From the NCBI RefSeq assembly GCF_003334355.1, contig NZ_QOWP01000013.1: a DNA stretch of 64,000 bases; one strand, given 5' to 3'. The position numbers and the translations under genes were made by a program. Positions 22,950 to 23,404 of the stretch are shown here, one piece after another. The notes under the pieces were generated by a model. It was not told where the DNA came from and did not search any database. It saw nothing but the letters and a program-made list of their open reading frames with translations. Each line of letters begins with the position of its first letter. Positions within the stretch are counted from its first letter, which is position 1. This DNA is from Escherichia coli (GTDB lineage Bacteria; Pseudomonadota; Gammaproteobacteria; Enterobacterales; Enterobacteriaceae).

Positions 22950-23270
22950 TCACCAGCAAGAAGTGAAAAAACTGTGAGTAAGCGGGTGATAAATGGTAAA
23001 AGTCATCTTGCTATAACAAGGCTTGCAGTGGAATAATGAGGCCGTTTCCGTGTCCATCCTTGTTAAAACAAGAAATTTTACGGAATAACCCATTTTGCCC
23101 GACCGATCATCCACGCAGCAATGGCGTAAGACGTATTGATCTTTCAGGCAGTTAGCGGGCTGCGGGTTGCAGTCCTTACCGGTAGATGGAAATATTTCTG
23201 GAGAGTAATACCCAGTCTGTTTCTTTGATAATTGCGCTGTTTTTCCGCATGAAAAACGGGCAACCGACAC
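22950..23270 (-). CDS. yceQ: questionable ORF YceQ (about 106 aa) antisense to the rne promoter/leader
   Basis: ORF 22950..23324; Cys-rich, no recognisable domain; recalled as a doubtful annotated ORF in E. coli; start choice uncertain. Confidence 0.25.
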
Positions 23271-23404
23271 TCTGCGCCTCTTTGAGCTGACGATAACCGT
23301 GAGGTTGGCGACGCGACTAGACACGAGGCCATCGGTTCACACCCGGAAAGGCGTTACTTTGCCCGCAGCTTAGTCGTCAATGTAAGAATAATGAGTAAGT
23401 TACG
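23005..23404 (+). promoter_or_regulatory. rne promoter and long autoregulated 5' leader (about 360 nt)
   Basis: sigma-70-like ttgcta-N17-gaataat about 370 nt upstream of rne ATG; long structured untranslated leader is an established feature of rne. Confidence 0.5.

Follow-up and report, generated by a model that had tools for sequence, protein, structure and literature searches.

Spurious ORFs that were scored as essential, such as yaaY, psrO and yceQ itself, overlie the promoter or 5′ UTR of an essential neighbour. In the case of yceQ, this neighbour is rne, encoding RNase E, which controls the stability of its own mRNA through a 361-nt leader. Price et al., Goodall et al. and Rousset et al. 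each placed the rne promoter region inside or over yceQ. According to Price et al., ribosome profiling yielded zero reads on yceQ in three conditions, the ORF is disrupted in some strains, and transposon insertions occurred only in the orientation able to drive rne. The same orientation-restricted tolerance was evident in the TraDIS study of Goodall et al., who ascribed the "essentiality" of yceQ in Keio and PEC to the rne promoter within it. In the CRISPRi study of Rousset et al., guides directed to the template strand of yceQ were depleted but those directed to the coding strand were not, which the authors attributed to a block of rne transcription.

Published genetic data bear on the same question. 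A nonsense mutant at codon 8 of yceQ is viable, and AGG codons of yceQ have been edited in genome engineering. In Salmonella, the yceQ ortholog is annotated as a pseudogene, yet insertions there are selected against. Genome recoding failed at three yceQ serine codons, where "synonymous" changes were lethal, and a preprint described this failure as impaired regulation of the neighbouring essential gene. The conclusion that yceQ is an artefact has thus already been published for this locus. From the literature, we took the absence of translation and the assignment of the apparent essentiality of yceQ to disrupted rne expression. Our own analysis established the ORF, its overlap with promoter and leader, the breakdown of its frame in related genomes, the lack of any coding signature and the covariation of the leader.

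An ORF opposite the rne promoter and leader

We analyzed a stretch of 64,000 nt of E. coli DNA, referred to as the window, of which positions 22172..23972 are identical in sequence to E. coli K-12 MG1655. The divergent rluC and rne genes are separated by a 572-nt spacer (Table 1). A sequence-only reading of the window had described, at 22950–23404, a minus-strand ORF of 106–124 codons with a Cys-rich product devoid of domains, lying opposite the rne promoter P1 and the start of a roughly 360-nt leader. The overlap was confirmed: the ORF covers the 58 nt that precede the P1 −35 hexamer, P1 itself and 281 nt of the 361-nt leader. The range given holds for the ORF as far as 23324, beyond which 23325..23404 contains the remainder of the leader and no ORF. 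The description of the product also proved apt, with 8 Cys among the 124 residues of the longest form and no match in Pfam-A and NCBIfam profile scans, even at E ≤ 10. In the 106-codon form, the sequence GAGG is found 6 nt 5′ of the GTG start.

Table 1. Features of the rluC–rne region, in window coordinates
Feature	Coordinates	Strand	Basis
rluC CDS, divergent from rne	21873..22832	−	ORF list and K-12 annotation
yceQ ORF, longest form, 124 codons; GTG start, TGA stop 22950..22952; judged non-coding	22950..23324	−	ORF list
yceQ/b1085 per NC_000913.3, 106 codons; GTG start	22950..23270	−	Curated K-12 annotation mapped to the window
DnaA ChIP-seq double box (published)	22972..22993		PMC11317965; sequence located in the window
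rne P1; −35 TTGCTA 23008..23013, extended −10 TGgAATAAT 23029..23037, predicted start ~23044	23008..23037	+	Promoter scan
rne 5′ leader, 361 nt, autoregulatory	23044..23404	+	Rfam rne5, covariation, conservation profile
rne CDS (RNase E, 1061 aa)	23405..26590	+	ORF list and K-12 annotation

P1, with the arrangement TTGCTA-18-AATAAT, an upstream TG and 9 of 12 matches, was the sole strong σ70-like site in the spacer. It ends 7 nt before the start of a match to the Rfam rne5 element (RF00040), and the start site was predicted from the promoter scan together with the start of this match. The resulting leader measures 361 nt to the rne ATG. The rne5 match extended over 23044..23380 with a score of 260.1 bits (E = 5.7e-82; gathering threshold 180). 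It covered positions 1–333 of the 333 in the model, ending 24 nt 5′ of the rne ATG.

To place the length of the ORF in context, we compared it with dinucleotide-preserving shuffles of the spacer and with shadow ORFs elsewhere in the window. The longest ORF in the shuffled spacers measured 67 ± 19 aa, and ORFs of at least 106 and at least 124 aa occurred in 4.2% and 1.5% of shuffles, respectively. The 64-kb window contained 44 shadow ORFs of at least 106 aa and 27 of at least 124 aa, including one of 560 aa antisense to rne. Overall, the length of the yceQ ORF is mildly unusual for a single spacer and unremarkable genome-wide.

Constraint on the frame and on the leader

To follow the reading frame in relatives, we searched for the invariant leader motif ACGCNGCAATGGCGTAAGACGT in a single genome of each species. 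This yielded 120 Enterobacterales loci, of which the 110 with complete spacers were aligned with the E. coli sequence (111 loci). The genes rluC and rne were divergent at similar spacing in every locus that reached both, and an rne5 element lay directly upstream of rne in all loci reaching rne. Across the 111 genomes, the −35 and extended −10 elements of P1 showed almost no variation, and the conservation profile contained an invariant stretch of the leader, 23113..23172.

Among the 111 loci, a yceQ frame free of indels and early stops was found only in Escherichia, namely in E. albertii and two further representatives; in the latter two, the TGA stop codon of yceQ had become CGA. Three Citrobacter loci were free of indels, yet an in-frame stop cut their frame to 82 codons. 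Salmonella shared this stop, likewise with 82 codons left, and carried a 1-nt insertion upstream of the annotated yceQ start. In all other aligned genomes, the frame was disrupted by 2–20 frameshifting indels. Despite the broken frame, nucleotide identity over the yceQ region was still 77–91% in the Enterobacteriaceae. The 21 codons past the Salmonella stop were identical to those of E. coli, and this stretch corresponds to P1. Conservation therefore continues where translation cannot. In 112 genomes, the ORF that runs through the invariant core in the E. coli frame had a median length of 28 aa, with diverse stop positions. A core-containing ORF of at least 100 aa was present in 19 of the 112 genomes; these were phylogenetically clustered, and the flanks of several were in another frame than in E. 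coli.

The substitution pattern was likewise devoid of codon periodicity. In 47 Enterobacteriaceae, divergence at the first, second and third codon positions of yceQ was 0.184, 0.127 and 0.155, the third-position value being 0.99 times that of the first and second positions taken together (permutation p = 0.51). The first 80 codons of rne in these genomes gave 0.011, 0.000 and 0.292, and those of rluC 0.046, 0.019 and 0.389. Against Citrobacter, the Nei–Gojobori dN/dS of yceQ was 0.87–1.07, similar to that of two other frames, with a dS of 0.10–0.12. The flanking genes had dS values of 0.46 (rne) and 0.64–0.95 (rluC), and a dN/dS of at most 0.03 in both. Because the dS of yceQ is so far below that of its neighbours, its nominally synonymous sites are 4–8 times more constrained, and this constraint is blind to the codon frame. 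Within Escherichia, yceQ had only 4–9 substitutions, with a dN/dS of 0.37–0.85 that was indistinguishable from that of two other frames.

Codon usage gave a concordant result. The log-likelihood score of yceQ, −0.184 bits per codon, was below that of all 62 other top-level ORFs of the window, which ranged from −0.125 to 0.488 with a median of 0.32. It fell inside the distribution of the shadow ORFs, whose median was −0.06. Together, the frame, codon periodicity, dN/dS and codon usage give no sign that the yceQ ORF is coding.

We then evaluated the structure of the leader by projecting the 84 Rfam base pairs onto a MAFFT alignment that had not been fitted to the structure. Of the pair cells, 87.9% were canonical, versus 32–44% in controls in which the partners were slid by 1–3 columns. 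Compensatory double changes were detected in 46 of the 84 pairs and in 517 cells, as compared to 124–206 cells in the slid controls. Divergence in the leader was 0.083 at paired and 0.203 at unpaired positions. The conservation profile tracked the promoter and leader without regard to the boundaries of the yceQ ORF. These data indicate that the plus-strand leader structure and the promoter account for all of the conservation over yceQ.

The same structure bears on the published recoding failure. As judged by their spacing, the three serines probably correspond to codons 2, 7 and 15 in the form of 106 codons (23265..23267, 23250..23252 and 23226..23228, respectively): the spacing is 15 and 24 nt here versus 14 and 24 in the recoding paper. 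In the leader, codons 2 and 7 coincide with paired positions and codon 15 with unpaired ones. In this assignment, recoding of the serines would be lethal because the edits strike the rne leader.

Within E. coli, all 5,426 complete genomes contained the yceQ-region sequence, 5,397 of them at 99% identity or more, and the ORF was intact in essentially all. At a nucleotide identity of 99% or more, such near-universal intactness is what constraint on the leader would be expected to produce. Two isolates illustrate its loss. In 30EVA1, a +1 nt insertion at ~22965 disrupts the ORF. In Z22-2, an IS1 at 22999..23007 removes the last 16 codons of yceQ and abuts the −35 element of P1; the same IS1 parts the DnaA boxes from P1. 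No PGAP feature was present under yceQ in any of 60 RefSeq E. coli genomes drawn from along the ranking, among them MG1655 records that had been re-annotated. Five matches to 22950..23324 were on plasmid-labelled records of the E. coli collection, which are possibly mislabelled contigs or F-prime-like captures.

At the protein level, a search of 5.8 billion clustered sequences returned 30 yceQ hits, all of them enterobacterial wherever an organism was named. The hits outside Escherichia and Shigella were fragments of 61–138 aa whose only common part was the translated invariant core. The peptide that they share is the translated reverse complement of 23113..23172.

Alternative readings of the minus strand

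The sequence-only reading had left two possibilities, an annotation artefact or antisense transcription that influences rne. The second would involve a non-coding transcript over the rne leader, P1 or both, which, as in an excludon, would interfere with rne transcription or pair with the leader and thereby modulate rne expression. ExcludonFinder lists the pair rne–yceQ as one of 16 divergent excludons present in 50% or more of E. coli RNA-seq samples. However, the tool builds its transcription units outwards from gene annotations, in which the yceQ CDS and the rne 5′ UTR overlap from the outset. The listing may therefore stem from annotation alone and is not independent evidence; as overlapping annotation suffices to yield such a call, we rejected it as proof of antisense transcription. 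The ExcludonFinder paper gives no specific evidence for a yceQ-strand transcript. A relaxed scan did reveal a promoter-like site on the minus strand, TTTTCA-16-AATTAT at 23255..23228, but this match is weak (8 of 12) and lies inside the ORF, downstream of both candidate start codons. No minus-strand promoter in the spacer passed the standard scan, and the probable rluC promoter at 22870..22841, although conserved, adjoins rluC and points away from the leader. Moreover, the strand effect seen by CRISPRi was ascribed by its authors to blocked rne transcription, and the conservation is explained in full by the plus strand. An influence of antisense transcription on rne thus found no support, and we consider such a transcript very unlikely.

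Alternatively, yceQ could be a real, young gene restricted to Escherichia and embedded antisense to the rne leader, encoding a small Cys-rich protein that is produced at a low level or only under specific conditions. In favour of this, E. coli, E. albertii and two other Escherichia representatives retain an intact frame, GAGG precedes the GTG start by 6 nt, and the ORF is longer than 96–98% of those in the shuffled spacers. Against this, the frame ends in a stop codon that was lost in two Escherichia lineages, a codon-8 nonsense mutation is viable, and natural truncations occur in E. coli isolates. The Escherichia dN/dS of 0.37–0.85 derives from 4–9 substitutions and is no different from that of other frames, codon usage is the lowest among the top-level ORFs of the window, and PGAP does not call the ORF. 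Upstream of either start, neither the standard nor the relaxed scan detected a minus-strand promoter. The profiling data of Price et al., with reads on yceQ absent in three conditions, complete this picture and leave a young gene extremely improbable. A more general form of these proposals, a low-abundance, Escherichia-specific product of the yceQ strand that is either an antisense RNA from inside the leader (for example, from near 23221) or a small Cys-rich protein, is in our view highly doubtful. If it existed, such a product would tune the firing of rne P1 or the folding of the leader, adding a second layer to the autoregulation of RNase E.

Other searches directed at the minus strand and the leader were uninformative. 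Cappable-seq supplements checked for yceQ-strand start sites contained no coordinates in the range. A literature search on antisense RNA at rluC/rne retrieved only unrelated Renilla-luciferase papers, and one on the rne leader and promoter retrieved only non-enterobacterial systems. A minus-strand Rfam hit to mir-316 (E = 0.88; 20 bits versus a threshold of 80) was dismissed as chance.

Of the two possibilities raised at the outset, the annotation artefact is strongly supported by the broken frames, the lack of a coding signature, the conservation explained by the leader and the absence of published ribosome reads. We conclude that yceQ is very probably a chance ORF and not a gene, its DNA being conserved through P1 and the leader of the essential rne on the opposite strand; the chance origin itself is inferred. 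The strand opposite yceQ carries P1 and, of the structured 361-nt leader, the first 281 nt; in the mechanism that we propose, selection on the promoter and on base-pairing in the leader would hold the nucleotides nearly fixed within Escherichia. The stop-free frame would persist in this genus because of that fixation. Outside Escherichia, the frame has decayed through stops and frameshifts, with the leader structure kept.

The value of this result lies mainly in annotation hygiene, and the comparative evidence supports the published case for retiring or flagging b1085. Strain engineers keep treating yceQ as an essential protein-coding gene, since it has been removed neither from the curated K-12 annotation nor from essential-gene lists. 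The locus is also an example of how a phantom ORF, and even a phantom "DUF" family, can be maintained by an essential regulatory RNA. No new biological question arises from it.

Neighbouring elements and comparison with known systems

Several elements and insertions were noted around P1 and the leader. The DnaA double box, which falls within the 3′ end of the yceQ ORF, precedes the P1 −35 hexamer by 15 nt and is only about half conserved across the Enterobacterales. An IS1 with a 9-bp target duplication was found at 22883..22891, between rluC and P1 and ~117 nt upstream of the −35 hexamer, in one genome of the set and in at least nine other complete E. coli genomes from different hosts. A peak for the RpoS holoenzyme in published genomic-SELEX data, at K-12 position 1,144,848, corresponds to window position ~22924, where the sequence between rluC and the yceQ stop codon is rich in AT and poorly conserved.

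On the rluC side, the minus strand of 22833..22889 contains two conserved blocks that adjoin the rluC start. The promoter-like sequence GTGGCG-18-TAGAAT at 22870..22841 ends 8 nt before the rluC ATG. No Shine–Dalgarno sequence was visible at this start, and an inverted repeat, GTTGGC…GCCAAC, abuts the ATG. Because the promoter-like site is 8 nt from the ATG and no Shine–Dalgarno sequence is visible, the rluC mRNA may, speculatively, be leaderless or nearly so.

Within the leader, a dispersed repeat of ~125 nt occupies one site, equivalent to window 23183..23194, in several genera: four Citrobacter loci, Klebsiella indica, one Pseudocitrobacter, two Kluyvera and Enterobacter sp. JUb54. The leader of the last has ~250 extra nt, apparently two copies of the repeat. 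The site lies at, or just within, the 5′ boundary of the hairpin next after the long-range helix. The repeat (…CCCCAGGTGCTTAC…GTAAGTGGTTGGGG…AAGCCAACGCACC…) resembles an ERIC/IRU element. It also occurs in E. coli genomes, at a median of 4 unannotated places per genome. Insertion of this repeat in the autoregulatory leader may affect feedback by RNase E. Other insertions, totalling ~105–125 nt, were found in the hp1/hp2 part of the leader (equivalent to 23047..23093) in three Erwinia loci and in one of the two Kluyvera loci that carry the repeat.

Compared with divergent excludons, the annotated yceQ and rne features similarly overlap head to head on opposite strands. Unlike those systems, the yceQ strand has no demonstrated promoter or transcript, either in our data or in the published text consulted. 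DUF2655 is the family named in the b1085 product, "DUF2655 domain-containing protein", in NC_000913.3 and in several database entries, but the product has no Pfam-A or NCBIfam match in current libraries; this "family" is made up of pieces of the conserved leader in translation, variable in length and frame. The plus strand corresponds to the known rne regulatory element, Rfam RF00040 rne5 with P1, over the full model, and in E. coli does not differ from it. In some Citrobacter, Klebsiella, Kluyvera, Pseudocitrobacter, Enterobacter and Erwinia, the rne5 leader differs by extra insertions of ~115–125 nt. Finally, in the class of spurious ORFs scored as essential, deletion, recoding or blocking of the ORF harms the neighbour and not a protein of its own, and yceQ is itself a published case of that class.
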